NCBI GenBank assembly: GCA_000739515.1
Contig: DF820455.1
Span: 1,258,203-1,304,711 of the forward strand
Direction of reading: 5' to 3'
DNA length: 46,509 bases
Source: Candidatus Moduliflexus flocculans
GTDB taxonomy: Bacteria > Moduliflexota > Moduliflexia > Moduliflexales > Moduliflexaceae
Part shown: positions 8,830-42,000 of the stretch, piece by piece
How positions within the stretch are numbered: the first letter of the stretch is position 1
Layout: every line of letters begins with the position of its first letter
Position numbers and translations under genes: made by a program
The notes under the pieces: model-generated
Seen by the model: only the letters and a program-made list of their open reading frames with translations
Database searches by the model: none
What the model was told of the DNA's origin: nothing

Positions 8830-8845
8830 CAAGGCTGCCAGCAAT

Positions 8846-9763: not shown

Positions 9764-9795
9764 CTCACAGGTCTCGAAGACCTGTGAGGTCTCCA
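9764..9795 (-). terminator. Family-1 hairpin copy (CCTCACAGGTCTCGAAGACCTGTGAGG). Its TTGTTG tail lies on the minus strand, so it is oriented as a minus-strand terminator.
   Basis: Perfect 10-bp stems. It lies in the divergent Rrf2/alr intergenic region, with no annotated minus-strand gene upstream of it. Confidence 0.5.
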
Positions 9796-9923
9796 CCACA
9801 AACATATTTTTTACATTTTACTTATGAATGAATTCTTTTGTAATTTTCGAGATATCCTGTTTGAAATCCAACTCGGAACGCGCAAAATTTTTCTTGACGG
9901 AAATTGCTGGCGGCACTTCAGCG

Positions 9924-11129: not shown

Positions 11130-11149
11130 CGTGGTATTTCTTCACATTC

Positions 11150-12115: not shown

Positions 12116-12204
12116 ATATAACGTCCCGCGAACATCCTCGTTGCTCGCTGACAAGACAAGCGAACGAGGATATGTTCGCGGGACGAAAAAGGAGTACCAG
12201 GACT

Positions 12205-14409: not shown

Positions 14410-14442
14410 CCGTAGAGACGCTCCGGCGGGGCGTATCTACGA
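14410..14442. repeat. Degenerate family-3 palindrome (GTAGAGACGC...GCGTATCTAC).
   Basis: 8/10 match to the GTAGAGACGC/GCGTCTCTAC arms seen at 39199 and 41971. Confidence 0.35.
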
Positions 14443-19429: not shown

Positions 19430-20197
19430 ATGAAACTTTCAACAAAGATTATTCTTACTACTGGAGTAGTAGCAATCGTTTTAGGCGTGTCTATTATTCA
19501 TGCGATTTCAAAAAAAATTGATCCTATAACAGATGCAATAAAACTGATTCTTGAGTCATTCAAAACGCAGAAAATCACGACAGAATATAAAACGTATGCC
19601 ACCGAAATAAAAGGAACAAACCGCTTGCAGCTTGCCACATTAAAAACGCAGGAAATTTTTACAAGAACTGAAAACTTAGATTATGTCTGGGGCTTGTTGA
19701 AATTCAGCGCTTCTGTCGAAATTTCCGCGCCGGTGGAATATACCTTTTATCTTGAATTGAACGACGGCTGGAAATTTTTAATCAACGATCCGGGCAATAC
19801 GCAAGTGACCGCGCTTGATGTCTATGTGCTTGCGCCGCCGATTCAAGCGAACGCCCCCGCGATTCATGTCTCCGAATGGCAAATCAAAGACGGCGAAACG
19901 AGCGTAATGATAGACGAAGGCGAGATGAAAAATAACCTGATTCGAGAGTTGGAAACCATCTGTCAGGGAGGCATCAGAGAAAAAATAGAGCAAGTCCGCC
20001 CAACTGTTCGCGATGAAGTCAGTACATTTGTCACGACCTGGTTTGTTGAAAACCGGTTCAAGGATTCCCCGATCAAGCCGCGCGTGGCGGGCGTTTATTT
20101 CGAGGATGAAGCCTTGCCGTCAAATGTGGCCGCGCTCTTGAAATTATCGCAAACCGAAACCATTCAACAGACGCCGAACGCAGGCCAAAACCTCTAA
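19430..20197 (+). CDS. Membrane-anchored hypothetical protein: one N-terminal transmembrane helix, then an extracytoplasmic domain. Possibly DUF4230-like.
   Basis: A strong AAGGAG RBS. N-terminal hydrophobic segment IILTTGVVAIVLGVSIIHAI. The first ~250 nt of the gene are conspicuously AT-rich relative to its neighbours. Confidence 0.6.
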   Translation: MKLSTKIILTTGVVAIVLGVSIIHAISKKIDPITDAIKLILESFKTQKITTEYKTYATEIKGTNRLQLATLKTQEIFTRTENLDYVWGLLKFSASVEISAPVEYTFYLELNDGWKFLINDPGNTQVTALDVYVLAPPIQANAPAIHVSEWQIKDGETSVMIDEGEMKNNLIRELETICQGGIREKIEQVRPTVRDEVSTFVTTWFVENRFKDSPIKPRVAGVYFEDEALPSNVAALLKLSQTETIQQTPNAGQNL

Positions 20198-20360
20198 TCA
20201 GCCATTAGCGCGTAGCGCTTGAAGTCTTGTAGATATGCCAGGTTGCGAGGAATCATTCGCCGTAGGCGATACGCTACGCGGTAGAATGCGCGGCGATTTT
20301 GATATTCTACAACACTCAAAGCCCTACGGGCTAAATTATTACAGGAAAGGAATCGTTGTC

Positions 20361-22605: not shown

Positions 22606-23541
22606 ATGAACACAAAACAACATGCTGGAAATATGTTTGTTCGTATTGCTTTCTTGCTGTGTCTGTTGGTCTCCTCCGCATTTGCGGAAGATGCGATTCA
22701 GATTTACGCCCCGCCGACGCCGTCGTCCATTCCGTTTATCCTCGCGGCGCAGCAGATGGACGACATAGACATCACGATTTTTGCCGATCACTCGCAGGCG
22801 CATACACTCTTTCTGCGGGGTGATGTGCCGATGTTAGTCACCGGGTTATCGGTAGGGATCAATTTTTTCAAGCAGGGCGTGCCGGTTCAACTCGTGAACA
22901 GCAGTGTCAGCGGCTTGACCTATTTAATCACAAAAGGCAAGCAGGTCAGTAGTTTTAAAGAATTGGCGGGCGAAGATATTTATCTGCCGTTCGAAGGTTC
23001 GCCGATTGAAGAGATTACGAAATTTTTAGCGGAAAAAGAAGGCGTGGTCTGGGGCAAGGAACTCATGCCGAAATACGCGCCATTTCCATCGGCGCTGGAA
23101 TTGCTGAAGGCCGGCAAAATCAGCGTTATCGCCCTGCCAGAGCCGTCAGCTACGGTAGCCGCCGCGCAGAAGGATGTCTTTGTTTCGTTCGGCTATCAAG
23201 AAAAATGGGATGCGTTGACCGGCAGCAGCGGCGGCTATCCGCAAGTCGGCATGTTCGTCAAAAAAGAGTGGGCAGAGCAGCATCGCGAACTGCTCGCGAA
23301 ATTGCATCAGAACCTTCAGGCCTCAATTCAGCGCGTGCAGGAGCATCCTGAAGAGGTGGTCGCCGCGAGTAAAGACTACTTTCAATTCCCGGAAAAAGTG
23401 CTGATTGCCTCGCTCAAACGAACAACCTTTGCGCTGAAAATCAATGCCGATTTGCAGCAAGACGTTTCTGGATATTATCAGACGATTGGACAGCCCTTAG
23501 ATGACTCGTTTCAGAGCTTTTTTTACCGCGATCCGCAATAA
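22606..23541 (+). CDS. ABC transporter periplasmic substrate-binding protein (NMT1/THI5-like, NitT/TauT family).
   Basis: Signal peptide MNTKQHAGNMFVRIAFLLCLLVSSAFA. Gene order SBP, then permease, then ATPase. Confidence 0.7.
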   Translation: MNTKQHAGNMFVRIAFLLCLLVSSAFAEDAIQIYAPPTPSSIPFILAAQQMDDIDITIFADHSQAHTLFLRGDVPMLVTGLSVGINFFKQGVPVQLVNSSVSGLTYLITKGKQVSSFKELAGEDIYLPFEGSPIEEITKFLAEKEGVVWGKELMPKYAPFPSALELLKAGKISVIALPEPSATVAAAQKDVFVSFGYQEKWDALTGSSGGYPQVGMFVKKEWAEQHRELLAKLHQNLQASIQRVQEHPEEVVAASKDYFQFPEKVLIASLKRTTFALKINADLQQDVSGYYQTIGQPLDDSFQSFFYRDPQ

Positions 23542-24947: not shown

Positions 24948-25176
24948 GTAACATGGCTGTTGCGATGTAAGTGCTGAGATTCTGTCAAATTCTCCGGGAA
25001 ATTGCAAAGAATTATTTGACATCTTTTATGGAAAATTGCAAGAGGACTTTCGTGCGAGGTTTGCCGCATAGCAACATCCGAAACATCTGTTTCATAATGC
25101 GGAATATCCATTTTTGCTATTCGTCAATTGCTTCAGCAGCCAACTGACTTCACAGGAACAGAGGAGGGCTGAAGAG

Positions 25177-26109
25177 ATGGCAGAACAACGATTTCGATTA
25201 GTGACTCGCAGTGATTTTGATGGGTTAGTGTGCGCGGTCTTATTGAAAGAGCTCGATCTGATTGATGAGATTAAATTTGTGCATCCGAAAGACATGCAGG
25301 ATGGCAAAATCGAGATCACCACAAATGATATTACCACCAATTTACCCTATGTCGAAGGCGTGCATCTTGCATTCGACCATCACCTGAGCGAAACAATCCG
25401 CATCAGCGGCAAAAAAGACAACCATATTATTGATCCCGACGCGCCGTCTGCGGCCAGAGTTGTCTATAATTATTATGGCGGGAAAGCCAGATTCACAGAG
25501 ATTTCCGATGACATGATGGCGGCAGTAGATAAGGGCGATTCCGCGCAATTTACCAGAGAAGAAATTTTACATCCAACGGGCTGGGTGCTGTTGCATTTTT
25601 TGATGGATGCCCGCACAGGTTTAGGTCGTTTCAGGGAATTCCGCATTTCCAATTATCAATTGATGATGGATTTGATCGCCTATTGCAAGGAACATACGAT
25701 CAACGAAATCCTGGCGTTGCCTGATGTCAATGAGCGGGTTGAATTGTATTTTGAGCATGAAGAACGCTTTATTGACCAGATTAAACGCTGCGCGAAAGTC
25801 TATCAAAATCTTGTAGTGCTTGACCTGCGGGATGAAGAAGTGATTTACGCCGGCAACCGGTTTATGATTTATGCGCTCTTTCCGCAATGCAATATTTCGA
25901 TGCATGTCTTATGGGGCGTCAAACAGCAGAATACCGTGTTTGCGGTCGGCAAATCAATCTTGAATCGCACGTCAAAGACCAATATCGGCGAATTGATGCT
26001 CAAATACGGCGGCGGCGGCCATGCAAACGCCGGCACCTGTCAGATTGAGAACAGTCAAGCCAATGCCATGCTTCAGAAAGTGATTGCTGCCATCACGGCA
26101 GAGGGGTAA
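25177..26109 (+). CDS. DHH/DHHA1-family phosphoesterase (NrnA-like).
   Basis: Motif I TRSDFDGLVCAVLL. DHH motif LAFDHH. DHHA1 motif GGGGHANAG. A GAGGAGGG RBS precedes ATG 25177. Confidence 0.75.
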   Translation: MAEQRFRLVTRSDFDGLVCAVLLKELDLIDEIKFVHPKDMQDGKIEITTNDITTNLPYVEGVHLAFDHHLSETIRISGKKDNHIIDPDAPSAARVVYNYYGGKARFTEISDDMMAAVDKGDSAQFTREEILHPTGWVLLHFLMDARTGLGRFREFRISNYQLMMDLIAYCKEHTINEILALPDVNERVELYFEHEERFIDQIKRCAKVYQNLVVLDLRDEEVIYAGNRFMIYALFPQCNISMHVLWGVKQQNTVFAVGKSILNRTSKTNIGELMLKYGGGGHANAGTCQIENSQANAMLQKVIAAITAEG

Positions 26110-29844: not shown

Positions 29845-30942
29845 ATGCTGAGAATAGACGATCTGCATGACATCAAAGACGGTCAGCGCCTCCGTTGCGG
29901 CTACACGACCGGCAGTTGTGCCGCCGCTGCCGCCAAAGCTGCCGCGCTGATGCTGCGCGACGGCGCAATTCCTGAATTTGTCGAGTTGGAAACGCCCGCT
30001 GGAATTACGCTGAATTTGCGGGTCGAACAGCCGCGTCTTGAGGCGGATCGCGCTTCATGCTGCATCGTGAAAGACGCGGGCGATGACCCGGATGTGACGA
30101 ACGGCATCGGGATTTTTGCTAAGGTGAAACGCCGTTCTGACGGTGAAATCAGCATTGACGGCGGCGAAGGCATCGGACGCATCACGCGCAAGGGTTTCTG
30201 GGGCGAAGTCGGCGACGCGGCGATTAATCCCGTGCCGCGCAAGATGATTCGCGATGCGGTGCGTCAGGTGGCGGCTCATGGCTGGGACGTGTTGATTTTC
30301 GCGCCGCACGGGCGGGAAATTGCGCAGAAGACCTTCAACCCGAACCTCGGCATCGAAGACGGCATTTCGATTATCGGCACAACTGGCATCGTGCGGCCAA
30401 TGTCGGATGATGCGCTGAAAAAAACGATTTTTTTAGAAATTGATCAGATTGCCGAAACGAGCGCAGCGGAAATTCTGCTCTGCCTCGGCAATTACGGCGA
30501 AAAAATGTCGGTGGCGCTGCCGCGCCGGATGCCGATGGTGAAAATCGCCAATTTCATCGGCGAATCGCTGGCGTACTGTCATAGCAAAGGCTTCCAGCAG
30601 GTAACACTGTTCGGACATGTCGGCAAGCTCAGCAAGCTCGCCATCGGCGCGTTTAATACGCATAACCGCGTCTGCGACGCCCGAATCGAGGCATTCGTTT
30701 ATTATCTCGCCCTTGCCGGAGCGCCGTATGCGTTGCTGCAACAGGTCAACCAGTGTGTCACATCAGAAGATGCGGCGCAACTGCTGATTGATAGCGGCCA
30801 CCGGCAGCTATTCGCGGAGATGCAGCGCGGCTGCGTTGAACGAATTCAACGCTATGTCAAAGACGATGGTTTTATCGTTGACGTGATTTTTTACTCGCTG
30901 CGACATGGAATACTGGTTGACAATTCCCTGACATCTAACTAA
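29845..30942 (+). CDS. cbiD: Cobalt-precorrin-5B (C1)-methyltransferase CbiD.
   Basis: LRCGYTTGSCAAAAAKAAALML is a CbiD hallmark. Length 365 aa. Confidence 0.9.
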   Translation: MLRIDDLHDIKDGQRLRCGYTTGSCAAAAAKAAALMLRDGAIPEFVELETPAGITLNLRVEQPRLEADRASCCIVKDAGDDPDVTNGIGIFAKVKRRSDGEISIDGGEGIGRITRKGFWGEVGDAAINPVPRKMIRDAVRQVAAHGWDVLIFAPHGREIAQKTFNPNLGIEDGISIIGTTGIVRPMSDDALKKTIFLEIDQIAETSAAEILLCLGNYGEKMSVALPRRMPMVKIANFIGESLAYCHSKGFQQVTLFGHVGKLSKLAIGAFNTHNRVCDARIEAFVYYLALAGAPYALLQQVNQCVTSEDAAQLLIDSGHRQLFAEMQRGCVERIQRYVKDDGFIVDVIFYSLRHGILVDNSLTSN

Positions 30943-31144
30943 TTTGGTTTTTGTCATAAGATATTACTGATCCAGTCATTTTCAGGAGTGCAAACGCGTG
31001 CTTGCCGCATGAAGTCGTCACGTCTTTCCCTGACGTTATCAGACCGCAAAAGCAGTCACAGTACCATCCCTCGAAACCGTCGAACAGGAACTTGCGAAGG
31101 TATCGGCGAAATGATTTGCGGAAATCTGCGGTTGACGCATTGTT

Positions 31145-31747
31145 ATGTTATCACTGATCGGCATGGGGCCGGGGCATATTGATTACGTGACGCCAGAAGC
31201 GGCGGCGGCGATTCGACGCGCTGACATCGTCTTAGCGTTCGACCGCGTGGCGGAAACTGCCGAATTGATCAGAACGCCGATTGTGCGGATTCGACGGCTG
31301 GATGACATCTTTGCGCATCTCGCGCCGGAACGCGATGTCGCGTTGCTGGTGTCCGGCGATCCCGGCTTTTTCAGCATGTTGGAATATCTCCACGCGCAAC
31401 GCGTCGAAATCGGGCGCGTGATTCCGGGCATTTCGTCGCTGCAATATTTTATGGCGGCGCTGCGCAAAAGCTGGCACGGCGTGACCTGCCTGAGTTTGCA
31501 CGGCAGAGACGACGATTTGGCGGCGCTGAAGGATGTTCGCATCGCGGCGATGTTGACGGATAAAATCAATACGCCGCAACATATTTCAAAACGCCTGCAT
31601 CAATTGGCATGGCGAGGCCGCCTGTATGTCGGCTCGCATCTCTCCTATCCGAACGAACGGATTCTCGCGGCGCGAATCGGCGACGAGATTGACGACGACG
31701 GCTCGCTTTCGATTGTGGTGGTGGAACGGGATGAAATGGCTTCGTGA
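31145..31747 (+). CDS. cbiE: Cobalt-precorrin-7 (C5)-methyltransferase CbiE.
   Basis: N-terminus LIGMGPGHIDYVTPEAAAAIRRADIV matches the tetrapyrrole methylase fold. It is adjacent to and overlaps cbiT. Confidence 0.8.
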   Translation: MLSLIGMGPGHIDYVTPEAAAAIRRADIVLAFDRVAETAELIRTPIVRIRRLDDIFAHLAPERDVALLVSGDPGFFSMLEYLHAQRVEIGRVIPGISSLQYFMAALRKSWHGVTCLSLHGRDDDLAALKDVRIAAMLTDKINTPQHISKRLHQLAWRGRLYVGSHLSYPNERILAARIGDEIDDDGSLSIVVVERDEMAS

Positions 31748-32306
31748 TGACGAATTCGAGCGCGGCGAGATTCCGATGACAAAATTTGAGGCGCGTGTCC
31801 TCTCCCTTGCGTTGTCAGGCATCGGCGCGGGCGATCTGTTTGTGGATATCGGCGCCGGCACTGGATCAATTGCGGTACAAGCGGCGCTGCTTGGCGCGGA
31901 CGTGTACGCCATCGAACGTGAGGCGGCAGGTGTGGCGCTGATTCAGAAAAATGCTGATAAATTCGGCGTTCGCATTCAAGTTTTGCATGGCTCTGCGCCA
32001 GAACAACTTGCCGAAATTCAGAATATAGACGCCTGTTTTATCGGCGGGAGTGGCGGCCAATTGCCGCAAATTGTTCGCGAAGCGCATCGTCGCCTGCGTC
32101 CCGGCGGGCGCATTGTCGCGAATTTTATCCGACCGGACACGATGACGCAATTCACGCAATTATTGAAAGAATGCGCCTGCGTCAACGTCGAAACCCGTCT
32201 GCTGCAAACGGCTGTCAGCGATTCATTCGGCATGTTGCGCGGGCAGAATCCGATCTTTTTAGTCAGTGGAATCAAATGTAGGGGCGAACCCCTGTGTTCG
32301 CCCTAA
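31731..32306 (+). CDS. cbiT: Cobalt-precorrin-6B C15-methyltransferase (decarboxylating) CbiT.
   Basis: MTKFEARVLSLALSGIGAGDLFVDIGAGTGSIAVQAALLGADVYAIERE carries a SAM-binding GxGxG. The ATG at 31731 overlaps the cbiE end by 17 nt. Confidence 0.85.
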   Translation: MKWLRDDEFERGEIPMTKFEARVLSLALSGIGAGDLFVDIGAGTGSIAVQAALLGADVYAIEREAAGVALIQKNADKFGVRIQVLHGSAPEQLAEIQNIDACFIGGSGGQLPQIVREAHRRLRPGGRIVANFIRPDTMTQFTQLLKECACVNVETRLLQTAVSDSFGMLRGQNPIFLVSGIKCRGEPLCSP

Positions 32307-32325
32307 AAACAACGACCGGATAACA

Positions 32326-32358
32326 CCTCACAGGTTTTGAAAACCTGTGAGGTTTGTA
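32326..32358 (+). terminator. Family-1 hairpin copy (CCTCACAGGTTTTGAAAACCTGTGAGG + TTTGTATG) located inside the cbi operon between cbiT and cbiL.
   Basis: Perfect 10-bp stems. It ends 10 nt before the cbiL start codon. Confidence 0.55.
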
Positions 32359-32368
32359 TGAGATATTT

Positions 32369-33034
32369 ATGAAAACATTGTATGGCGTCGGGGTCGGCCC
32401 CGGCGACCCGGAACTGGTCACGCTGAAAGCGATCCGCGTCATTCGCGAGGCCGATTACATCTTTGTGCCGCGCCCGAAAAAAGAGTCTGAAGGCATGGCG
32501 GAAGCGATTGTGGCGGAACATCTGGCCGGAAAGCAGGTCGTATATCTGCATCTGCCGATGGGCGCGGATAATTCGGAACGCTACCGGGAAATTGCGAGCG
32601 AGATTGACGCGACGCTGCGCGATGACGAAAACGGCGCATTCATTACGATCGGCGATCCGATGGTCTATAGCACATTTGCGTATCTCATGTTCGCGGCGCA
32701 GACGCTCGGCATTCGGACGCGTATCGTGCCGGGCATTCCCTCATTTGTGGCAGCTTCCGCCGCGCTTGGTGAGCCGCTTGCGATTCGCGACGACAGCTTT
32801 TATCTCGCCGATGGCAGCGTTGACGAGGAAATTTTGCGGCGTGTGCAAACAGTCTGTGTGTTGAAACCGCGAAAAGAGTTGGCACACACCCTTGACAAAT
32901 TCGAACAATACGGCTTCGACTATGCGTATCTGAAACGCTGCTCGCTGCCAGAAGAAGAAATTATTCGCGACCGTGACCGCATCGCGCAGGATCGCGACTA
33001 CATGACGCTGTTGTTTGCCAGAAAAAAAGAATAG
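32369..33034 (+). CDS. cbiL: Cobalt-precorrin-2 C20-methyltransferase CbiL.
   Basis: MKTLYGVGVGPGDPELVTLKAIRVIREADYIFVP. Confidence 0.85.
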   Translation: MKTLYGVGVGPGDPELVTLKAIRVIREADYIFVPRPKKESEGMAEAIVAEHLAGKQVVYLHLPMGADNSERYREIASEIDATLRDDENGAFITIGDPMVYSTFAYLMFAAQTLGIRTRIVPGIPSFVAASAALGEPLAIRDDSFYLADGSVDEEILRRVQTVCVLKPRKELAHTLDKFEQYGFDYAYLKRCSLPEEEIIRDRDRIAQDRDYMTLLFARKKE

Positions 33035-33042
33035 AATTCATA

Positions 33043-33080
33043 TAGGGTGCAAAAGCAAGCTTTTGCACTCCTATTTTTCT
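33043..33080 (+). terminator. Family-5 perfect palindrome GGAGTGCAAAAGC-AA-GCTTTTGCACTCC followed by TATTTTTCT, between cbiL and cbiF.
   Basis: 13-bp perfect arms plus a T-run. Other copies at 33841-33891 (tandem/extended), 30983-31011 (degenerate) and 29527-29552 (degenerate). Confidence 0.6.
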
Positions 33081-33083
33081 CGG

Positions 33084-33833
33084 ATGATTTATTTTGTCGG
33101 CGCAGGGCCGGGAGACGTAGATTTGATCACGGTGAAAGGCCGCCGTTTATTAGAAACGGCGGATGTCGTCATTTACGCCGGGTCGTTGGTCTGGGACGCG
33201 CATCTGCGCTTTTGCAAGCCAGAATGCGAGCGCTACGACAGCGCGGGCATGACGCTGGAAGCGGTGCTTGACATCATGGCGCAAGCCGAAGCCGCCGGGA
33301 GAATGACCGTCCGGCTGCATACCGGCGATCCGACGATTTACGGCGCAATCGGCGAGCAGATGGCGGCGTTGGATCAACGCGGCATCTTATATGACATTGT
33401 GCCGGGTGTCAGTTCCTTTACCGCCAGTTGCGCTGCCGTGAAGCGGGAATTCACCGTGCCGAATGTCAGCCAAACTATCATCGTGACGCGCCTCGAAGGC
33501 CGCACGCCCGTTCCGCCTTTGGAATCATTAGAATCGCTCGCCGCGCATCGCTGCTCGTTGGCAATTTTTTTGTCGGTGCAAGATATTGAAAATGTCGTCG
33601 TCAAACTCAAAAGCGGCTACGGGCGCGACGACGTGCCGGTAGCGGTCATCTATAAAGCAACCTGGCCGGAGCAGCAGATTGTGCGCGGCACGCTCGCTGA
33701 CATTGCCGAACACGTCCGCGCCGCCGGAATCAAAAATTTTGCGCAGATTCTCGTCGGCGATTTTTTGAACGCCCACGGCGAACGCTCGCTGCTGTATCAC
33801 CCCGACTTTTCGCATGGATTCAGACAGAATTAA
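33084..33833 (+). CDS. cbiF: Cobalt-precorrin-4 C11-methyltransferase CbiF.
   Basis: MIYFVGAGPGDVDLITVKGRRLLETADVVIYAGSLV is the canonical CbiF/CobM N-terminus. Confidence 0.9.
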   Translation: MIYFVGAGPGDVDLITVKGRRLLETADVVIYAGSLVWDAHLRFCKPECERYDSAGMTLEAVLDIMAQAEAAGRMTVRLHTGDPTIYGAIGEQMAALDQRGILYDIVPGVSSFTASCAAVKREFTVPNVSQTIIVTRLEGRTPVPPLESLESLAAHRCSLAIFLSVQDIENVVVKLKSGYGRDDVPVAVIYKATWPEQQIVRGTLADIAEHVRAAGIKNFAQILVGDFLNAHGERSLLYHPDFSHGFRQN

Positions 33834-33840
33834 TGCTTTC

Positions 33841-33891
33841 CAGGAGTGCAAAAGCTTGCTTTTGCGGCAAAAGCAAGCTTTTGCACTCCTG
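33841..33891. repeat. Family-5 palindrome in extended/tandem form (CAGGAGTGCAAAAGCTTGCTTTTGC-GGC-AAAAGCAAGCTTTTGCACTCCTG), between cbiF and cbiG.
   Basis: A 51-bp near-perfect palindrome read directly. Confidence 0.6.
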
Positions 33892-33899
33892 ATGCGACA

Positions 33900-34865
33900 A
33901 TGAATATTGCGTGTTTGACATTCACCCATCGCGGATTTGAATTAGCGGAACGCTTGCAAGGCTCGTATCAAGGGCGCGTGGAAGTGTTTGCCAAGGAAAC
34001 CTATAAAGATGAACTTCCGCGCATTTTCGAGGAATTTGAGGGCGTCGTGTTCGTGGCCTCCACCGGCATCGCGGTGCGGCTCTCTGCGCCATTTCTCAAG
34101 GGAAAAACCAAAGACCCGGCGATTGTCGTCGTGGATGATATGGGACGATACGCCATCAGCCTCGTTTCCGGTCATCTCGGCGGCGCGAATGCGTTGGCGC
34201 AGGAAATCGCGGAATTGCTCGACTGCCAGCCGATTATCACGACTGCTTCCGATGCGCGAAAAATCGAATCTATTGACCTGTTTGCGCAAAAGCATCATTT
34301 AGTCATCGCAGACATGCTGGACGCCAAGCTGATTACTGGCATGATGGTGGACGGCAGGCCGATCCGCCTTGACAGCGAAATTCCGGTGACGCTCGATTAT
34401 ACGCATCTCTCCGACGATGAATACGATGGGTGCATTTACGTGACATCGCAGCGCCATGTGGAAAGTAATGTGCCATGTTGCGTATTGCATCCGAAAACGC
34501 TCCATGTCGGGCTTGGCTGCCGCCGCGGCAAAACGGCGAAAGAGATTATGGACGCCATTACGCAGGTGTTTCAGGAAGAAAATCTCTGCCTCAGCAGCAT
34601 TCGCTCGATTGCCACGACCGAAATCAAGCAGGAAGAGCCGGGCATTCTCGAAGCCGTCAATCGGCTCGGCGCGGAACTCCGCATCTTCACACATTCGCAG
34701 ATTCGCAGCGTGCAAGACCGTTTTGTCAGAAGCGAATTTGTCGAACGCACGATTGGCGTCAGCGCTGTCAGCGAGCCGTGTGCCTATCTCGCAGGCGGCG
34801 ACGTGATTGTCGGCAAAATCGCGATGCACGGCGTCACAGTGGCCGTTGCGAGGGAAACGCCATGA
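33900..34865 (+). CDS. cbiG: Cobalt-precorrin-5A hydrolase CbiG.
   Basis: MNIACLTFTHRGFELAERL... together with the C-terminal CbiG domain. The ATG at 33900 follows the palindrome. The ORF-track start at 33846 lies inside the palindrome and is unlikely. Confidence 0.8.
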   Translation: MNIACLTFTHRGFELAERLQGSYQGRVEVFAKETYKDELPRIFEEFEGVVFVASTGIAVRLSAPFLKGKTKDPAIVVVDDMGRYAISLVSGHLGGANALAQEIAELLDCQPIITTASDARKIESIDLFAQKHHLVIADMLDAKLITGMMVDGRPIRLDSEIPVTLDYTHLSDDEYDGCIYVTSQRHVESNVPCCVLHPKTLHVGLGCRRGKTAKEIMDAITQVFQEENLCLSSIRSIATTEIKQEEPGILEAVNRLGAELRIFTHSQIRSVQDRFVRSEFVERTIGVSAVSEPCAYLAGGDVIVGKIAMHGVTVAVARETP

Positions 34866-35449
34866 CGATTTACACGAAAACCGGAGATGACGGCACAACC
34901 AGCGTCATCGGCGGGCGACTGCCGAAAGACGACGCGCGGGTCGAGGCGTATGGCGCGATTGACGAACTGAATTCGCAGATCGGGCTGGCAATTGCCGAAC
35001 TTGACGCAGGGCGAGACGCCGATTTATTGGCGGATTTGACGGAAATTCAGCAACAGCTATTCGATTGCTGTTCCGATTTGGCGACGCTGCGCCCGGAATT
35101 GCGGGCATATCGCATCACGCCGGAACACGCCGAGCGCCTCGAGCCGCGTATTGACCACTACAACGCGCAAACCATCCCTCTCGAATATTTTATCCTGCCC
35201 GGCGGCGCGCGGTTGTCGGCGTTGCTGCATGTTTGCCGCACGGTGGCGCGACGAGCGGAACGGTGCGTTATTACGCTGGAACGCGAAGCGCAAACCGTGA
35301 ACCCTGCCGTCAAAATTTACCTGAATCGCCTCTCTGATCTCTGTTTCGTAATGGCGCGAGCGGCGAATGCGCGGGCAGGCGTGGCGGATGTCTGCTATGC
35401 GCGGAGCAAAAAGATTTTTAAATGCAAGTCGCCAATCATCACCACGTGA
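34862..35449 (+). CDS. PduO-type ATP:cob(I)alamin adenosyltransferase.
   Basis: MTIYTKTGDDGTTSVIGGRLPKDDARVEAYGAIDELNSQIGLA is the canonical PduO-type N-terminus. The start overlaps the cbiG stop (ATGA). Confidence 0.85.
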   Translation: MTIYTKTGDDGTTSVIGGRLPKDDARVEAYGAIDELNSQIGLAIAELDAGRDADLLADLTEIQQQLFDCCSDLATLRPELRAYRITPEHAERLEPRIDHYNAQTIPLEYFILPGGARLSALLHVCRTVARRAERCVITLEREAQTVNPAVKIYLNRLSDLCFVMARAANARAGVADVCYARSKKIFKCKSPIITT

Positions 35450-35695
35450 TCAACCTCAGATTTCACAGAGAAAAAAACCTGCGGCCTCTGCGAAATCTCT
35501 GGTTTCATCGTTCTGAAGAATCGCCGATCATCGCGATTGTGTTTCTTGACTTCTTTCGAAAAAAATATTTGACTTTCTTTTGAAGGCTTCATGGAGTGCA
35601 TAGTCAGAAGCATCATGATTCTCATGATGCGCTGATTGAACATTCCGATGGAAATGGGCTGTCACGCAGTGTTCGAACTGCCTGGCCGCTTAAAC

Positions 35696-38509
35696 ATGCT
35701 TATGAAAAAGTCGTTCATGATTCTCTGGTTGCTGATTGGAACGTTATTCCTCGCCGGTTGTCCCAATCATTATCAAAAGGGAATGACCTATATCGAACAG
35801 GGACAAACTGATTTAGCCATCCAAGAACTCCTCACCGCTCTGCAAAAAGAGCCGAATAACCCTGATATTTATTATCAATTAGGGCAGCTTTATATTCGAC
35901 AGGAAGCGTATCGCAAGGCGCAGGAGATGTTTCAGGCGGTTGTTGATCGTTTTCCGACGTATGCGAATCGCGACGGCGCGTTATATTATCTCGGACTGTG
36001 CCATTTTCAATTCCGCGAATACCCGCTCGCGATGAACGCTTTGGCTGAGGTTGGAATGAAATTTCCAGCCAGTCAGTTCGGCGAGTCCGCGCAGTTCTAT
36101 TATGCGGAAAGCGCCTGGTTTGCTGAGGATGTCGGCAAGGCGACCGGTTCTTATCAAGAACTGTTGCGTCGCTTCCCGACCGGATCATTCTATCCGGTCG
36201 GCTTGTTCCGGCTTGGAGAGTGCCAGTTGACGCTTGGCAATCATGCCGAGGCAGCGGACGCATTCAAAAAATTTCTGGCTGCCGCCGACACCTGGAATGC
36301 CAATGCGATTCAGGGGCGATACGACCTGAATCAATTGATCGAACGCGCCTATTATGCGTTAGGCAAGAGTTTTACTGCCTTGAAAGAACCGGCCAAAGCC
36401 ATCGGTTATTATCGCGATCTGCTGAGTAAATTTCCCAAAAGCGGGTATGCGCCAGAAGTCTTTTATCGCCTCGGCATTGCCTATGAAAGCGTGGGAAATC
36501 AGCAGCAAGCCGTTGATACCTTCCGCACGCTCTTAAAAGATTTTTCCGCCTCGGAATTTGCGGATGACGCTTTATTCCGCCAGGGAAGCGTACAGTTCAG
36601 CGGTCAACAGTATGACGCGGCGCTGGCCTCACTTACGGAATTAATCACCACGTTTCCGAATAGTCCAAACGTGCCGCGAGCGCAGATTATGATCGGCAAT
36701 GTCTTGATGCTGAAAAATGATCCGCTGAAGGCTGCTGACGCCTACGAACAGGCGCTCTCCTATGCGCCGCAGCCGATTGAAATCGGCAGCATTAAAATTG
36801 AGCGCGCGGAAGCCGTTGCGGCGTTACGGCGTCAGATCAGGCTTTCAGCGGCGATTGCGCATTATCAGGCTGATGATTTCGCGAAAGCCGCAGCATTGCT
36901 GGCAGAAATTCCCGCTGAAGAACGCACGACTGAAGAGCATTTTTGGAATGGGGAAATCGCATTTCGCCTGCAAGATTATGCGCAGGCTCGCAGCGATTTT
37001 AATCGCGTGCTGACAAGCCAGGATGCCAAAGATTTGGCGCCGCAGGCGCATTTAGGCATCTTGAAAATTTTATACGCCCAGGAACAATGGCAGGAGGTTT
37101 TGCAGCGTGCGCAAGAGATTCCGCGCGAGCGCCTGACGCCAGAAGTGTTTTTGCTTGCGGGGGATGCGGCGCTGAATCTCAAAGATTTTCCCTCTGCAAT
37201 CACATGGTATGAAGACATTCGCAATCGCTATCCACAACATCCGATGGCGCAAGACATCCTCTATTACGCGGGAATCGCCGCGTACAAATTAGAGAAATTC
37301 GACCAGGCTCGAAAATATTTCAACGATTTGATCCAGCAATATCCTGGACATCGTTTTGCTGGCGAAGCGCAGTTTTATCTCGGCTGGACATTTTTCCGCG
37401 ACGATAATTATGAACAGGCGATTCGCGCGTTTCAACTGCTGATCGAGCGTTTTCCTCAAAGCGAGTTTGTCGTGCAGGCCAGATTAAAAATCGCGGACTG
37501 TTATTTTAACATGGGGCGATATGCCGAATCGCTGCAAGAATATCAACGGATCATGAATGATTACCAGAATAAGCCGGAAATTGTCGGCGAAGCGCAGTAC
37601 GGCATGGCGTTGGTGTATAAAGTGACGGGAGAATACAACCAATATCTCGCTGCCACGCGAGAATTTATCGAGAAAAACCCCAACAGCCCGCTCAGCATCG
37701 CCGCGCAGTTTCAAATTGGCGAACAATATTTTCAGCAAGATGATTACCTGAACGCTATCAATGCCTACCAATGGATTGTGGAGCGTTTTCCCGATAGCGA
37801 GTACGCGGATAACGCGCTCTATCGAATCGGGCAATCCTATGCGCAGCAGAATGATGTGACGGCGGCGTTAGAATATTTTCACAGCCTGATGAATCGCTAC
37901 CCGAAAAGCGAATATCGCCCGACCACACAATATGAGATTGCGGCGCTGTATTTTCACGCAAAAGATTTTGCGAATGCTGCGGCTGAATACCAGACATTCT
38001 TGCAAAGCTTTCCAGCTGATACCAACGTGCCGCAAGCGATGGCTGATTATGGAACATGTCTGATCGCGCTGAACAAGATGCCGGAAGCGTCGAAAGTCTT
38101 CGAGCAATTGCTTCAGCGTTTCCCCACAAGCCCGCAAGCCGAAGGCGCAGGCGTTGTCGTTGGAGAAGCGTATGCCAGCCAGCAACGCTGCGAAGATGCG
38201 GAAGAGGCGTTCGGCGCGGTGTTAAGCGGCTCAGATCAAGGGAAAGCGGCGAAAGCGCAATTGACGATTGCCTCTTGTTATCAGGCGCAGGGCAATGCCG
38301 AAAAAGCGATTGCCGAATATTTTAAAGTGATTTATGTGCATTCCAGCCAGAAAGCCGAAGTGGATCAGGCCACATTCGCGTCGGCAGGCATTTATGAACA
38401 GCAGGGCAAAATAGACGAAGCCCGTAACTTGTATAAAAAACTCGCGGAGACATCTTCCAATCAGGAATTTGTGCAACAAGCGAGACAGAAATTGCAGGAA
38501 TTGCAGTAA
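35696..38509 (+). CDS. Large TPR-repeat lipoprotein, about 935 aa, with tandem TPR/YbgF-like repeats throughout.
   Basis: Lipobox LFLAGC. Many repeats of the pattern A...Y.LG.......Y..A...F...P.S.....A. Confidence 0.75.
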   Translation: MLMKKSFMILWLLIGTLFLAGCPNHYQKGMTYIEQGQTDLAIQELLTALQKEPNNPDIYYQLGQLYIRQEAYRKAQEMFQAVVDRFPTYANRDGALYYLGLCHFQFREYPLAMNALAEVGMKFPASQFGESAQFYYAESAWFAEDVGKATGSYQELLRRFPTGSFYPVGLFRLGECQLTLGNHAEAADAFKKFLAAADTWNANAIQGRYDLNQLIERAYYALGKSFTALKEPAKAIGYYRDLLSKFPKSGYAPEVFYRLGIAYESVGNQQQAVDTFRTLLKDFSASEFADDALFRQGSVQFSGQQYDAALASLTELITTFPNSPNVPRAQIMIGNVLMLKNDPLKAADAYEQALSYAPQPIEIGSIKIERAEAVAALRRQIRLSAAIAHYQADDFAKAAALLAEIPAEERTTEEHFWNGEIAFRLQDYAQARSDFNRVLTSQDAKDLAPQAHLGILKILYAQEQWQEVLQRAQEIPRERLTPEVFLLAGDAALNLKDFPSAITWYEDIRNRYPQHPMAQDILYYAGIAAYKLEKFDQARKYFNDLIQQYPGHRFAGEAQFYLGWTFFRDDNYEQAIRAFQLLIERFPQSEFVVQARLKIADCYFNMGRYAESLQEYQRIMNDYQNKPEIVGEAQYGMALVYKVTGEYNQYLAATREFIEKNPNSPLSIAAQFQIGEQYFQQDDYLNAINAYQWIVERFPDSEYADNALYRIGQSYAQQNDVTAALEYFHSLMNRYPKSEYRPTTQYEIAALYFHAKDFANAAAEYQTFLQSFPADTNVPQAMADYGTCLIALNKMPEASKVFEQLLQRFPTSPQAEGAGVVVGEAYASQQRCEDAEEAFGAVLSGSDQGKAAKAQLTIASCYQAQGNAEKAIAEYFKVIYVHSSQKAEVDQATFASAGIYEQQGKIDEARNLYKKLAETSSNQEFVQQARQKLQELQ

Positions 38510-38617: not shown

Positions 38618-39202
38618 ATGAAACATCAATGGCATTTTTTATGGCTTTTTGTCGGCGCATGCTGCCTGTTCCCGGCTAATCGCGCCGTATCTCAGGACAC
38701 TCAGCCAGAAACGCTTCGATTGCCGGAAGTTGTGATCATCGGCATTGACGAATCGAAAATTCAGCGTCCGATTCCAAAAGTTGAATTGCTTCCCGCGTCG
38801 CTTCCGGTGATGACAACGTCGTGTTTGGATGAGGCGGATGCGTTGGCGTGGCAGGCGGCGTTGGTGGCGCTGCTTCAGCCGCGCAAGGCGGAAAAATTGT
38901 ATCAACAGGCGATTGCGCTTGATCCGGAAGATACAGACGCCTATGCGCGTTTGGGAAAAACATATCAGGCGTCCGGCATGTACGAACGCGCGAAAGATGC
39001 CTATCTCAAGGCCATCGAACGCGATAGCGGCGTCAGCGACATGCATTATGCGTTAGGCATTTTGTATGACAGCCATTTGCGTGAGCCGCAAAAAGCGCTT
39101 GAACAGTATCGTGTCTATCTTGAGCATGGCGGCGCGGATGCGCGGGTGAAATTCTGGATGCGGGAACTTGAGGAGAAATTGCAATCGCCGACAACTCCGT
39201 AG
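38618..39202 (+). CDS. Secreted TPR-repeat protein.
   Basis: Signal peptide. TPR-like repeats (YQQAIALDPEDTDAYARLGKTY..., YLKAIERDSGVSDMHYALGILY). Confidence 0.65.
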   Translation: MKHQWHFLWLFVGACCLFPANRAVSQDTQPETLRLPEVVIIGIDESKIQRPIPKVELLPASLPVMTTSCLDEADALAWQAALVALLQPRKAEKLYQQAIALDPEDTDAYARLGKTYQASGMYERAKDAYLKAIERDSGVSDMHYALGILYDSHLREPQKALEQYRVYLEHGGADARVKFWMRELEEKLQSPTTP

Positions 39203-39226
39203 AGACGCACGGCTGTGCGTCTCTAC
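39199..39226. terminator. Family-3 hairpin GTAGAGACGCAC-GGCT-GTGCGTCTCTAC, between convergent genes.
   Basis: 12-bp perfect stem. A second copy lies at 41967-42000. Confidence 0.6.
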
Positions 39227-39236
39227 GTTGCGGGGA

Positions 39237-39650
39237 TTACGATACGGTTAACGGAATATACACCGTATTGCTGGACGTGCCGTCCCGGTTCTGAACAAAC
39301 ACAGAGAGAATGACTTCGCCTGGTTGAACGAGCACGCTCAGTTGAAATGATGTGGTCAGCGTGCCGGACGTGCCAGAGGCATTCGAGACTCGCCCCTGAT
39401 ACGAATTGCCCTGATTATCGGTAATAAAGGCCGTTCCGTCGTTCATTTTGCCAGAGACGTCAATAAAATTGATCGCTAACACGATGGTCGCGCCAGCATT
39501 GGCGGGGTTGGGCGTGGCTGTGCCCCCATCTGACAATTGCGGCGGAGTTGACGGCCCGGTCGGGCCATCGCTGCCGCCATCGCATCCAGCGAGGGCGATG
39601 ATCAGCGCGAATATTATACCCCACCACACAGACTTCATGCGAAACTTCAT
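39237..39650 (-). CDS. Small lipoprotein of 137 aa. Lipobox LAGC, then a Gly/Ser/Pro-rich linker and a beta-rich domain.
   Basis: An AAGGAGG RBS lies 7 nt upstream of the ATG. It is on the same strand as, and 88 bp downstream of, the HEAT-FGE gene. Confidence 0.6.
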   Translation of the reverse strand: MKFRMKSVWWGIIFALIIALAGCDGGSDGPTGPSTPPQLSDGGTATPNPANAGATIVLAINFIDVSGKMNDGTAFITDNQGNSYQGRVSNASGTSGTLTTSFQLSVLVQPGEVILSVFVQNRDGTSSNTVYIPLTVS

Positions 39651-39738
39651 TCTTATGCCTCCTTTGTTAAATGATTAATATTCTGGATTATCTCGTCGCG
39701 CGGCAACGCCGCGATTCCTCATTCAGCCGAGGAAACTC

Positions 39739-41604
39739 TTATGATGTGAAATCTTTGGCACAGCGAAAACCGATAAAATTGCTCCGGTTGTCTGCCGGGG
39801 CATAAAGTCTGGTCGTGCAAGTGGACTGGTACTCCGGGTGAATCCACGATCCGCCGCGCAACACGATAAAATCTTCGTCATAATCCGGACTTTGATGCTG
39901 ACTCCAGGCATACGGCTTATATCGGTCTGCGGTCCATTCCAAGACATTGCCAGTCATATCATATACGCCGAAAGGACTGATGCCGCTGGGATATTGGCTG
40001 ACTGGCGTCAGATGATGTACGCCGGATTCCTGCGTATTGCAACGGGTATGATCGAATTCGCTCCCCCACGGGAACGTTCTGCCATCCGTTCCTCGCGACG
40101 CTTTTTCCCATTCTGCCTCAGTTGGCAGGCGCTTTCCTATCCAGCGGGCATAAGCGTTCGCTTCGTCCCAGGTAATGTTCACGACCGGAAACGCCTCCAT
40201 GCCGTCGGGGTAGGAATGATTCGGGTCAAACCGTTTGTATTGTGCGTTTGTGACTTCATGCATGTCAATGAAAAATCCATCAAGATACACACTTTGTTCC
40301 GGGCTGGCGTTCGGCGAGCCATTTTCGCGCCCCATAATAAAATGGCCTGGCGCAATATAACACATATTGGCAAACGTATCTTCCGATCGATATTCTAAGC
40401 GAATCGGCGTCTGCGCTTGTGGAATTGTCACAATATCAAGCGTTTTCAGGATGTCGCGGGAAATGCTTTGCAGAAAAGCGTTTTTTTGTTGCTCTAATCG
40501 CGTCAAGATCGGCAAAATCGCAGGCGTCGCGATTTTGCCCAGCGCATAGGCCGCTTTCCAATGCACCATCCAATCGTCATCATGCAGCGCGTGAAGCAGC
40601 GGCTCAAACGCTTGTTCCGATCCAATCTGCCAGAGGGCGCTGACCGCCATGCTGCGCACGTGCCAATTAGGGTCGATCAGGGCGCGGCTGAGAGCTTTGA
40701 TTGATTTTTCGGAACGAAGCTGTCCGAGCGCCCATACCGCGCTTTCGCGCACTTGCCAGACTTCATCCTGCAACGTGGCAACCAATGCTGGCAAAGCGCG
40801 TTGCGAGCGAAGTTCTCCGAGCACCTGCGTGACGCGCTGCCGAATCTGCCAATTTTCGTCATGCAGCGCGAACACTAATGGCTTGATGGTTCGATTCGAT
40901 TCCATGCCCCGCAAGGCTCCAACGGCGCAATACCGCACATGCCAGACATCATCACTCAGGCATTTTACCATGTCTTTAAGCGCTGAGGCCGACCCGATTT
41001 TGCTTAAGACATCAAGCGCCGTACAGCGCACATGCCAGACATCATCGCGCAGCGCTTTGATAATATGCTGCACCACGCCATTCGACGGTGTCAGGCTTAA
41101 TTCGAGCAGCGCGGCTTCGCGAATTGTCCAATCGCCATTTTGTAATGCTTTCGTCAATTCGCCAACGGAACGTTTTAACGAAATCGCTGATGCAGGAGAA
41201 TTCGAAGATTGGCGATGAAGTGGGGAAATCTGCGCGGCACCGTCTGGGATCGGCACCGCTTGTTTCGTCGGCATCGGCTGATCATTTCCAGTTACTGACA
41301 CAACGGGACGGGGAATGGCGTGAGGCGGCGTATCTGACGGAAATGAGGCCGGAAGGGATTTCGGCGCAGAGGGATGATACTGGCGAATGGCAACTGTCGC
41401 GCCGGCTTGCTCTAAATAGACTTTCAGCTTTTTTGTCGCAATTGCGGAAATATTGGCGGCGATCACGCAGGGACAGGATGTCAGAATCGCTTCCGGTGAA
41501 GCGCTCAACCCGCGGATATGTTGAAGCAGCCGGAATACCTTCTCCCGTTCCGTGCCAATAGCTCGCAATTCTACCTCGAATCGAGCGGCGTGTTGACTTT
41601 CCAA
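39739..41604 (-). CDS. Multi-domain protein: N-terminal ribosomal L7/L12 C-terminal-domain-like module, a Pro-rich linker, about 8 HEAT (PBS-lyase-type) repeats, then a C-terminal FGE-sulfatase (SUMF1-like) domain that lacks the catalytic Cys pair.
   Basis: The N-terminus FEVELRAIGTEREKVFRLLQHIRGLSASPEAILTSCPCVIAANISAIATKKLKVYLEQAGATVAI aligns with the L7/L12 CTD ([38 protein letters not shown]...KKALEEAGAEVEV). Repeated DDVWHVR/AA.ALG motifs mark the HEAT repeats. The C-terminal region carries FGE-sulfatase motifs (GNV.EWT.D, RGGSW, FRCA). The start is TTG. Confidence 0.7.
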   Translation of the reverse strand: MESQHAARFEVELRAIGTEREKVFRLLQHIRGLSASPEAILTSCPCVIAANISAIATKKLKVYLEQAGATVAIRQYHPSAPKSLPASFPSDTPPHAIPRPVVSVTGNDQPMPTKQAVPIPDGAAQISPLHRQSSNSPASAISLKRSVGELTKALQNGDWTIREAALLELSLTPSNGVVQHIIKALRDDVWHVRCTALDVLSKIGSASALKDMVKCLSDDVWHVRYCAVGALRGMESNRTIKPLVFALHDENWQIRQRVTQVLGELRSQRALPALVATLQDEVWQVRESAVWALGQLRSEKSIKALSRALIDPNWHVRSMAVSALWQIGSEQAFEPLLHALHDDDWMVHWKAAYALGKIATPAILPILTRLEQQKNAFLQSISRDILKTLDIVTIPQAQTPIRLEYRSEDTFANMCYIAPGHFIMGRENGSPNASPEQSVYLDGFFIDMHEVTNAQYKRFDPNHSYPDGMEAFPVVNITWDEANAYARWIGKRLPTEAEWEKASRGTDGRTFPWGSEFDHTRCNTQESGVHHLTPVSQYPSGISPFGVYDMTGNVLEWTADRYKPYAWSQHQSPDYDEDFIVLRGGSWIHPEYQSTCTTRLYAPADNRSNFIGFRCAKDFTS

Positions 41605-41966
41605 GCGTTCTTTTCTGCTCAGGCCGTCTGCCGCGCGTGTCTATCACGCGCCGCGGCTGGCTGGCAGCATGTCATGTGTACCTATTTTCTCGGCGTCCCG
41701 ATTAAGTGTTCATCAAAAACAGACAATCATCTGTATAGTATAATTATGCAGGTTTTACTGGCGTGTCAAGAAAAAAGCGTCATTGGAGAATGTTGAAGAG
41801 GCAATTGCAGGAGATTGCTCGGCGCTGATTCGAGCAGATATTGATTTTCTTGAAAAAAATGATGCTCGTGCTGTTGGAACGGCGCGTTTCAGGAGCGTCA
41901 GGCGTCATTGCGTCCCCTTGCCTTCGAAGAGATCGCATATTAGGGAACTTTCAAAAGGCCGTAAAT

Positions 41967-42000
41967 CCGGTAGAGACGCGCGGGTGCGCGTCTCTACCGG
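41967..42000. terminator. Family-3 hairpin CCGGTAGAGACGCGC-GGGT-GCGCGTCTCTACCGG, about 30 bp downstream of the MCP stop on the minus strand.
   Basis: 15-bp perfect stem read directly. Confidence 0.6.

Follow-up and report, generated by a model that had tools for sequence, protein, structure and literature searches.

A conserved KSB3 gene pair encoding a lipoprotein and a protein with bL12-CTD-like, HEAT and FGE-like modules that lacks the catalytic cysteines of FGE

We analysed a stretch of 46,509 nucleotides (nt) of the genome of Candidatus Moduliflexus flocculans, a member of candidate phylum KSB3 (hereafter, the window), and in particular a pair of genes encoded on its reverse strand. The upstream gene (39739..41604, −; TTG start at 41604, stop codon included) specifies a protein of 621 amino acids (aa), in which a domain resembling the C-terminal domain (CTD) found in ribosomal protein bL12 (L7/L12), a low-complexity tether, a solenoid of HEAT repeats and a domain of the formylglycine-generating enzyme (FGE) family follow one another. 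The downstream gene (39237..39650, −) specifies a lipoprotein of 137 aa. Both open reading frames (ORFs) had been described in an earlier note, made from the letters of the DNA, and both are present at these positions. The same note held that the three-part combination corresponds to no characterised function, and we found none in Pfam, NCBIfam, PADLOC, the PDB or the literature searched.

The 621-aa ORF matches GenBank GAK49874.1 (U14_01098) identically; the name given to this entry is "hypothetical protein", and UniRef calls it [quoted passage not shown]. The deposited protein is 609 aa long and begins at L13 of the ORF, with the result that the bL12-like domain loses its strand beta-1 and, with it, the invariant residue R8 (window 41569–41604, −). 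In the orthologs the start coincides with the TTG codon at 41604, so the annotation is probably short by 12 codons. About 40 full-length orthologs, 50 to 85% identical, were identified, and all those with a source name come from KSB3. An alignment of 32 family sequences showed all three domains to be conserved, the most conserved region being the FGE-like domain (mean pairwise identity 66%), followed by the HEAT region (60%), the N-terminal domain (55%) and the linker (15%). A profile scan of genome contigs was uninformative on phyletic distribution: the full-length alignment selected generic FGE peptides (EWEKAARG, GNVLEWTxD), and among the matches listed there were unrelated FGE-domain proteins (residues ~228–621) and no family member. 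NCBIfam models yielded only matches far below threshold (EgtB, GldK, SenA, NblB and similar). No signal peptide was detected in the 621-aa protein, nor any hydrophobic span other than a strand of the folded N-terminal domain, and the DNA upstream of the start leaves no space in which one could be encoded; the protein is therefore cytoplasmic. We hold this anatomy, together with the statements that the protein is neither an FGE nor a ribosomal protein, with high confidence. The 621-aa protein is a lineage-specific new architecture built from known parts.

The N-terminal domain (residues 8–75; 41380..41583, −) has the bL12-CTD fold and a family-specific C44-P45-C46 motif. With a single sequence, the Pfam family Ribosomal_L12 matched residues 9–73 with E = 7e-4 and 20.3 bits, under its gathering score of 25.9 bits, and this match is not decisive alone. 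When a profile of 31 orthologous N-terminal domains was compared with the PDB, bL12 chains were the only significant matches and aligned from end to end, the best being 1ctf (E = 7e-7), followed by the bL12 proteins of Thermotoga maritima, Mycobacterium tuberculosis and mitochondria. The AlphaFold2 model of the domain (predicted local distance difference test, pLDDT, 90.7) displays the beta-alpha-alpha-beta-alpha-beta topology of the bL12 CTD, and in a Foldseek search with this model ranks 1 to 13 were all bL12 CTDs, with template modelling (TM) scores of 0.78 to 0.86, followed by ClpS at about 0.64. Judged by the profile matches, the topology of the model and the Foldseek ranking, the domain is a true homolog of the bL12 CTD, and the likeness to L7/L12 proposed in the earlier note thus extends to both fold and detectable sequence homology. 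A reading of the domain as ClpS-like, or as a ClpS N-degron adaptor, was rejected on sequence grounds despite the related fold.

The register of bL12 residues was taken from the alignment of the N-domain profile with bL12 of the PDB. The bL12 core is retained at F54, V56, L58, G62, V68, V72, G77-L78, L86, P91, L94 and V98. The residues of bL12 reported to contact EF-G are V66–V68, K70, L80 and E82 (PMC5887453). Four of these six contacts, V66, A67, L80 and E82, are not conserved in the family, where variable polar or small residues take their place (V66 to E/K/G, A67 to K/Q/T, L80 to A and E82 to S), and K81 is deleted; the only contact positions kept are V68, which remains hydrophobic, and K70, which is basic in 24 of the 32 sequences. 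The mention of the factor-binding module in the earlier note should therefore not be taken to mean that factor binding is retained. Further differences from bL12 were observed. C-P-C replaces the A-P-A of bL12, with C46 invariant and C44 present in 29/32 sequences, and the conserved surface of the head is specific to the family (R8, E12, S36-P37, C44-P45-C46, N51 and S53). The domain lies at the N-terminus of a protein of 621 aa, rather than in one of the size of bL12 (~120–130 aa), and nothing precedes it, so that the N-terminal domain through which bL12 dimerises and binds uL10 is missing. The arrangement of the head on a disordered tether of variable length nevertheless resembles that of the bL12 CTD on its hinge.

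The tether (residues 76–139; 41188..41379, −) is a low-complexity segment rich in Pro, Ser, Thr and Ala. With 22% Pro and 16% Ser, it agrees with the proline-rich linker noted previously, and among the orthologs it ranges from 16 to 92 aa in length. It leads into the HEAT solenoid (residues 140–400; 40405..41187, −), matched by the Pfam families HEAT_2 (E = 2.6e-43) and HEAT_PBS (E = 1.8e-20) and, within that range, by HEAT. The repeat motif D-x-x-W-x-V-R recurs with an exact spacing of 31 aa, at repeat starts 156, 187, 218, 249, 280, 311 and 342. HEAT repeats were thus correctly recognised in the earlier note, but the 31-aa register gives seven of them, followed by a C-terminal cap, rather than about eight. 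The repeats are of the type found in PBS-lyase-type HEAT proteins (NblB, CpcE/F and YibA), to judge from the HEAT_PBS match. However, the NblB and CpcE matches were sub-threshold, with scores far under the equivalog cut-offs, the host has no phycobilisomes, and a conserved Trp in position 4 of the repeat characterises the KSB3 family. Metagenome loci L093–L099 encode proteins of ~455 aa that consist of HEAT repeats only, in the same register and with ~33% identity to the HEAT region; neither a bL12-like nor an FGE-like domain is present in these proteins.

The C-terminal domain (residues 412–617; 39754..40371, −) matches Pfam FGE-sulfatase (PF03781; C-type-lectin-like fold) with E = 7.7e-50. 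Its nearest solved sequence relatives are CalU17 (E = 3e-30) and SUMF2/pFGE, which lacks the catalytic Cys pair (E = 4e-28), followed by true FGEs (E ~1e-22 to 1e-24). In the HMMER alignment with human FGE, the catalytic residues C336 and C341 both fall in insertions that are absent from the 621-aa protein, and 31 of the 32 family members have no Cys between W587 and C596, with no conserved Cys in that interval. The absence of the two catalytic cysteines, predicted in the earlier note, is therefore upheld by the alignment and by the family. The two cysteines C596 and C615 align with the structural disulfide residues C346 and C365 of human FGE rather than with the catalytic pair, and C596, invariant in the 32 aligned sequences, is a Ser in one close relative, P0276. 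H589, C522 and C615 are all invariant, H589 adjoining the deleted Cys336 position. As the copper-binding Cys pair is absent, formylglycine cannot be formed in the FGE way, and FGE-type chemistry is, on the alignments, excluded for this protein. No sulfatase domain was found among the neighbours in the window and the fetched loci, the remainder of the genome lying outside this search.

Comparison with characterised members of the family places the domain more precisely. It shares the GGSW, LEWT and GFRC motifs with FGE itself (SUMF1; bacterial structures 2q17, 6muj and 6s07), but lacks C336 and C341, has a loop shorter by 3 residues and occurs outside any sulfatase context, and the additional N-terminal modules of the 621-aa protein are not found in FGE. 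CalU17, from the calicheamicin cluster (PDB 7ml6, 6vqp), has the same short loop devoid of the Cys pair (RGGSWMNFRYQVRC versus RGGSWIHPEYQSTC), but is a single-domain protein with an Asn at the position of H589; a literature search on CalU17 found no paper. SUMF2/pFGE (PDB 1y4j) combines the FGE fold with the lack of catalytic cysteines in the same way, but is a single-domain protein of the lumen of the endoplasmic reticulum, without HEAT repeats, a bL12-like domain or a lipoprotein partner. It is a non-catalytic protein that still binds sulfatase peptides, and both FGE and pFGE bind unfolded segments of sulfatases. Two other groups of proteins of this fold were considered. For EgtB, OvoA and SenA, the EgtB model scored 110 bits against a cut-off of 360, with only the C-terminal FGE-like part aligned, and no DinB domain was present; for GldK/PorK and GldJ, the GldK score was 106 bits against a cut-off of 350, and the 621-aa protein has no lipoprotein signal. 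A literature search for FGE-sulfatase combined with HEAT returned domain censuses only. The FGE-like domain is probably, as the earlier note inferred from the lost cysteines, a binding module. That it is the most conserved region of the protein implies a fixed ligand and argues against a diversifying sensor.

The 137-aa product of the downstream gene has a signal peptide, a lipobox (L-A-G-C), a Gly/Pro tether and an Ig-like beta sandwich of seven strands, in agreement with the beta-rich lipoprotein anticipated in the earlier note. The signal ends in ...IIALAGC23, the predicted site of lipidation, at which the Cys is invariant in 16 orthologs and the preceding residue is Gly in 15/16. The orthologs, 40 to 93% identical, were taken from the fetched loci, as a word-indexed search with the lipoprotein gave five relatives; their invariant residues are C23, T31, P33, P37 and L39, and the segment following the predicted lipidated Cys contains an invariant P-T-G-P..P-x-L motif. 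The structural model, built on an alignment of six sequences, is of moderate confidence (pLDDT 72.7), with an N-terminal helix covering residues 3–21 and the seven beta strands. A fold search with the model recovered only generic Ig-like and E-set domains (TM scores 0.4–0.55) and gave no functional lead. The possibility that the lipoprotein is a split-off beta-rich segment of the paralog P0208, described below, was rejected (hhalign probability 0.2%).

The two genes are separated by 88 nt with no terminator-like site, and a strong Shine-Dalgarno sequence, AAAGGAGG, lies 7 nt upstream of the lipoprotein ATG (39658..39665, −). A gene for a lipoprotein homolog, in the same orientation, directly follows in every one of the 13 locus records with downstream DNA (the window, L001–L006, L087–L089, L091, L092 and L097, of which L001/L002 and L087/L088 are near-duplicate pairs), and the gene order suggested by the earlier note is thus conserved. 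In L087/L088 and L092 the two reading frames overlap. In the contig of P0036, for which there is no DNA, an opposite-strand ORF is called at the position of the lipoprotein gene; L091, a relative from the same clade, does carry the lipoprotein.

Several candidate expression signals accompany the gene pair. A sigma-70-like promoter match, TTGACA-18-AATTAT (10/12; 41740..41769, −), lies ~135 nt upstream of the start, as a consensus match only. The putative 5' leader contains a stable hairpin (41615..41667, −; −30.8 kcal/mol, z −3.5) that stops ~10 nt short of the weak ribosome-binding region serving the TTG start, and this stem-loop could modulate translation initiation. At a permissive threshold, Rfam models gave no match between 39100 and 42100. 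The unit is also flanked by two exact copies of a palindrome resembling a repetitive extragenic palindrome (REP), GTAGAGACGC-N8-GCGTCTCTAC, one at 39199–39226, between the convergent lipoprotein and tetratricopeptide repeat (TPR) genes, with no T-run after it, and the other at 41970–41997, downstream of a methyl-accepting chemotaxis protein (MCP) gene and upstream of the promoter of the operon. The two copies have folding energies of −26 and −32.5 kcal/mol, and two matches occurred in 0/100 shuffled sequences. A third, imperfect GTAGAGACGC palindrome at 14412–14440, adjoining a metallo-beta-lactamase-fold gene (13633–14355), is consistent with a dispersed REP-like element of the M. flocculans genome. 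The motif was absent from all 106 loci fetched at that stage. The earlier note was right that hairpins bracket the unit, but they are not part of it as a conserved entity: given the lack of T-runs and the absence of the motif from the 106 loci, they are species-specific REP-like elements whose position at the ends of genes is coincidental.

The rest of the window has a housekeeping character, with genes for alanine racemase, a glycoside hydrolase family 1 glycosidase, yebC-ruvCAB, a sugar nucleotidyltransferase, ABC transporters, MCPs and a cobalamin cluster. No defence family was identified in the window with PADLOC, which gave only generic HEAT matches. The wider context of the gene pair is not conserved, except for a convergent pair of TPR genes found in about half of the loci. 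In the window, these genes encode a BamD/YfiO-like TPR lipoprotein of 957 aa (35636–38509, +) and a secreted or periplasmic TPR protein of 194 aa (38618–39202, +). The 194-aa gene was present in the window and in six locus records (L001/L002 and L087/L088, the near-duplicate pairs, L004 and L092), and the 957-aa gene in the window and three loci; both also occur in the P0036 contig. The TPR pair recurs although protein identity between those loci is only ~55%. A single locus, L006, has a defence or prophage flavour (8690–12754): next to the gene pair there are a gene for Peptidase_M15_4, one for a TIR_2 protein and phage-like genes (DUF5131/GP88).

Other observations concern the window alone. 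A signalling protein of 2014 aa (2785–8829, +) has the architecture Ser/Thr kinase, AAA_16 (STAND-like ATPase), GAF, HisKA, HATPase_c and receiver. Five ORFs of 255 to 623 aa, at 12–1247, 19430–20197, 20235–22106, 22606–23541 and 25114–26109 (+), had no Pfam match at E <= 1e-5. The cobalamin cluster (29845–35449, +) comprises CbiD, three tetrapyrrole methylases, a methyltransferase, CbiG and a Cob adenosyltransferase; its listed ORF 34475–35449 overlaps CbiG by ~390 nt and matches Pfam from residue 132 only, so its true start is probably further downstream.

The bL12-like domain was also found in many other proteins. A word-indexed search with the 80-aa N-domain profile gave no matches, and an exhaustive HMMER profile search was used instead; it recovered 355 cluster representatives at E <= 1e-3, almost none of them of ribosomal-protein size. 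Their architectures include tandem arrays of up to 7–8 copies of the bL12-like domain (Pfam Ribosomal_L12 >400 bits), fusions with TIR (e.g., P0130), LRV repeats or dockerin, proteins with a signal sequence or transmembrane (TM) segment followed by SH3_3, a TM segment, a coiled coil and the bL12-like domain, and proteins whose N-terminal bL12-like domain, bearing the same P-C motif, is followed by a long acidic linker, a TM segment and another domain (examples among P0129–P0274 are P0129, P0130, P0132, P0134, P0152 and P0234). One of the SH3_3-TM-coiled-coil proteins is named "ribosomal protein L7/L12" by NCBI and looks misannotated. The two proteins P0208 and P0213 are of the bL12-like, linker and TM type and end in an FGE-like domain. 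P0208 (CSB45_00335 / CSA57_14185) is from KSB3, one source being the same metagenome-assembled genome as that of the ortholog P0035. The bL12-like and FGE-like domains have therefore been combined twice in KSB3, across the membrane in P0208 and in the soluble form with HEAT repeats. The N-terminal bL12-like domain with its P-C motif, the long linker and the C-terminal FGE-like domain are common to P0208, P0213 and the 621-aa protein, but the first two have a TM helix and a beta-rich segment in place of the HEAT repeats, their FGE-like domain is predicted to lie outside, and they have no lipoprotein neighbour. A divergent SpoU-family RNA methyltransferase gene lies directly upstream of P0208 and P0213 (L107 3912–4694 and L109 3774–4541); this neighbour could be a case of shared synteny, or could point to a function connected with RNA or translation.

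Domains of both kinds have been catalogued before. Kaur et al. 2020 (PMC7159879) described, for the conflict systems of multicellular bacteria, inserted L12/ClpS domains and "FGS" domains at the C-terminus, and a census of cyanobacterial orthocaspases listed both domains among the accessories (PMC8283722). Our literature search on Ribosomal_L12 in non-ribosomal contexts returned domain censuses only; we found no study on the function of a non-ribosomal bL12-CTD domain.

We suggest, at somewhat less than an even chance, that the 621-aa protein is a non-enzymatic cytoplasmic adaptor working with the lipoprotein. In such an adaptor, the HEAT solenoid would serve as a platform, and the tethered bL12-like head would recruit a second cytoplasmic partner through its family-specific conserved surface. 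The FGE-like domain may still be able, as the FGE family was ancestrally, to hold an extended peptide from an export-bound protein, as in the precedent of SUMF2/pFGE, and the most likely client would be the precursor of the co-encoded lipoprotein, with its invariant P-T-G-P..P-x-L segment after the lipidated Cys. This client-binding mechanism, proposed by analogy, is doubtful as a specific claim. The fusion of the two domains in a different KSB3 protein, P0208, was counted in favour of the adaptor. Several observations weigh on the other side. Contact between the two gene products is something that we infer only, and the exported lipoprotein resides in another compartment; its motif differs from the recognition motif of FGE, CxPxR; and no lipoprotein gene was found downstream of P0141, the most distant relative with the full architecture. 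As the FGE-like domain of P0208 is predicted to lie outside the membrane, such a domain need not bind a cytoplasmic precursor. The invariant residues H589, C522 and C615 leave room for a catalytic or metal site that has escaped recognition, and the replacement of C596 by Ser in P0276 also counts against the proposal.

Two alternatives would turn the FGE-like domain back into an enzyme. That the protein is a genuine FGE maturing a sulfatase, as suggested by the strong Pfam match and by source annotations (e.g., [quoted passage not shown]), is next to impossible: this reading is refuted for FGE-type chemistry by the loss of both catalytic cysteines, seen in the alignment to human FGE and in the orthologs, and no sulfatase gene was found in the window or in any fetched neighbourhood. 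It is improbable, to a lesser degree, that a metal or redox site of another kind is formed by the FGE-like domain, perhaps jointly with the head's CPC motif, and modifies a substrate, possibly the lipoprotein. The invariance of H589, C522 and C615, of C596 in the 32 aligned sequences and of C46, with C44 in 29/32, would suit such a site, and FGE-fold enzymes of other chemistry exist (EgtB, OvoA, SenA and PvdO), but no DinB domain or any other partner domain that binds metal is present in the 621-aa protein, the human FGE residues aligned with C596 and C615 are structural disulfide cysteines, C596 is a Ser in P0276, and all equivalog scores are far under their cut-offs. The translation apparatus has also to be considered, because the head is a genuine bL12-CTD homolog in both sequence and fold. 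A mimic of the ribosomal stalk would bind translational GTPases or the uL11 region through this head, and would titrate factors or work during translation, the nascent lipoprotein being one possible target. The position of the head on a flexible hinge, the basic residue at the K70 position in 24/32 sequences and the translational coupling with the lipoprotein gene in some loci would fit this idea, as would the contact that the bL12 CTD makes with L11's N-terminal domain (PMC3505967). We nevertheless regard it as decidedly unlikely, given that V66, A67, L80 and E82 have been replaced by variable polar or small residues and K81 deleted, that the N-terminal domain that would anchor the protein to uL10 is missing and that relatives of the domain occur in very diverse non-ribosomal contexts. 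In a variant with only a slim chance of being correct, the head would be a cytoplasmic output or docking domain through which sensing modules are coupled to the machinery of translation or to another GTPase, an idea prompted by relatives in which it forms the cytoplasmic tail of single-pass membrane proteins with an outer SH3_3 or FGE-like domain. If this were true, the docking of the head on ribosomes or translational GTPases through its remodelled surface would make it a free "stalk arm" by which protein synthesis is connected with the state of the envelope or of a ligand. Client-specific, co-translational handling of the lipoprotein is a related possibility.

The remaining alternatives place the gene pair in cellular conflict or in the envelope, and both are unlikely. 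In a conflict or immune-type sensor, the FGS domain would sense an invader, the HEAT repeats would form a scaffold and the bL12/ClpS-like domain would act as a multimerising or adaptor module. This corresponds to the domain syntax of Kaur et al. 2020 (PMC7159879), in which FGS is always C-terminal to other domains, as it is in the 621-aa protein, HEAT repeats form superstructures and L12/ClpS domains are inserted. KSB3 bacteria form multicellular filaments (PMC4312070). Relatives with NACHT-HEAT-FGE and kinase- or caspase-FGE architectures were among the matches, relatives of the N-terminal domain are fused to TIR (P0130), and the ortholog locus L006 lies near TIR_2 and phage-like genes. The resemblance to FGS conflict proteins, and to targets of diversity-generating retroelements (DGRs) such as TvpA (2y3c), is thus one of a C-terminal FGE-like module following repeat or adaptor domains in multicellular bacteria. 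However, no NTPase, vWA-MoxR, effector or reverse transcriptase gene was found in the window or in most loci, there is no variable region or DGR, the PADLOC matches are generic HEAT matches, and the FGE-like domain is the most conserved region of the protein rather than a hypervariable one. The gene has the character of a conserved ortholog accompanied by a partner that is likewise conserved, in the window within a housekeeping context. The protein might instead belong to an envelope or gliding apparatus, together with the lipoprotein and the neighbouring periplasmic TPR proteins, the genes for which recur at the loci listed above. KSB3 filaments glide by a mechanism that is not known (PMC4312070), the FGE fold is used by the lipoproteins GldK and GldJ of gliding and type IX secretion, which gave sub-threshold NCBIfam matches, and MCP genes are adjacent in several loci. 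Yet the 621-aa protein has neither an export signal nor a membrane span, L003, L005 and L006 lack the TPR genes, and the GldK/GldJ scores are far under the cut-off (106 vs 350 bits). Adjacent MCP genes are weak evidence, as KSB3 genomes are very rich in such genes.

The adaptor working with the lipoprotein is thus the reading that we put forward. The three modules are all known and FGE-fold proteins without the catalytic cysteines are very common, so the 621-aa protein is not a new kind of thing. It does provide a clean, conserved and testable case of a ribosomal-stalk head recruited to a non-ribosomal protein, joined to FGE-like domains on two independent occasions within a single phylum and strictly paired with a lipoprotein. 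The most useful lead is the broad and functionally unstudied set of non-ribosomal bL12-CTD domains, some of which are misnamed "ribosomal protein L7/L12": a binding partner of the head domain, once found, would explain many proteins together. KSB3 bacteria are uncultured gliding filaments (PMC4312070) and cause bulking in reactors, and a conserved gene pair extending from the cytoplasm to the envelope is a reasonable candidate for a part in their envelope biology.

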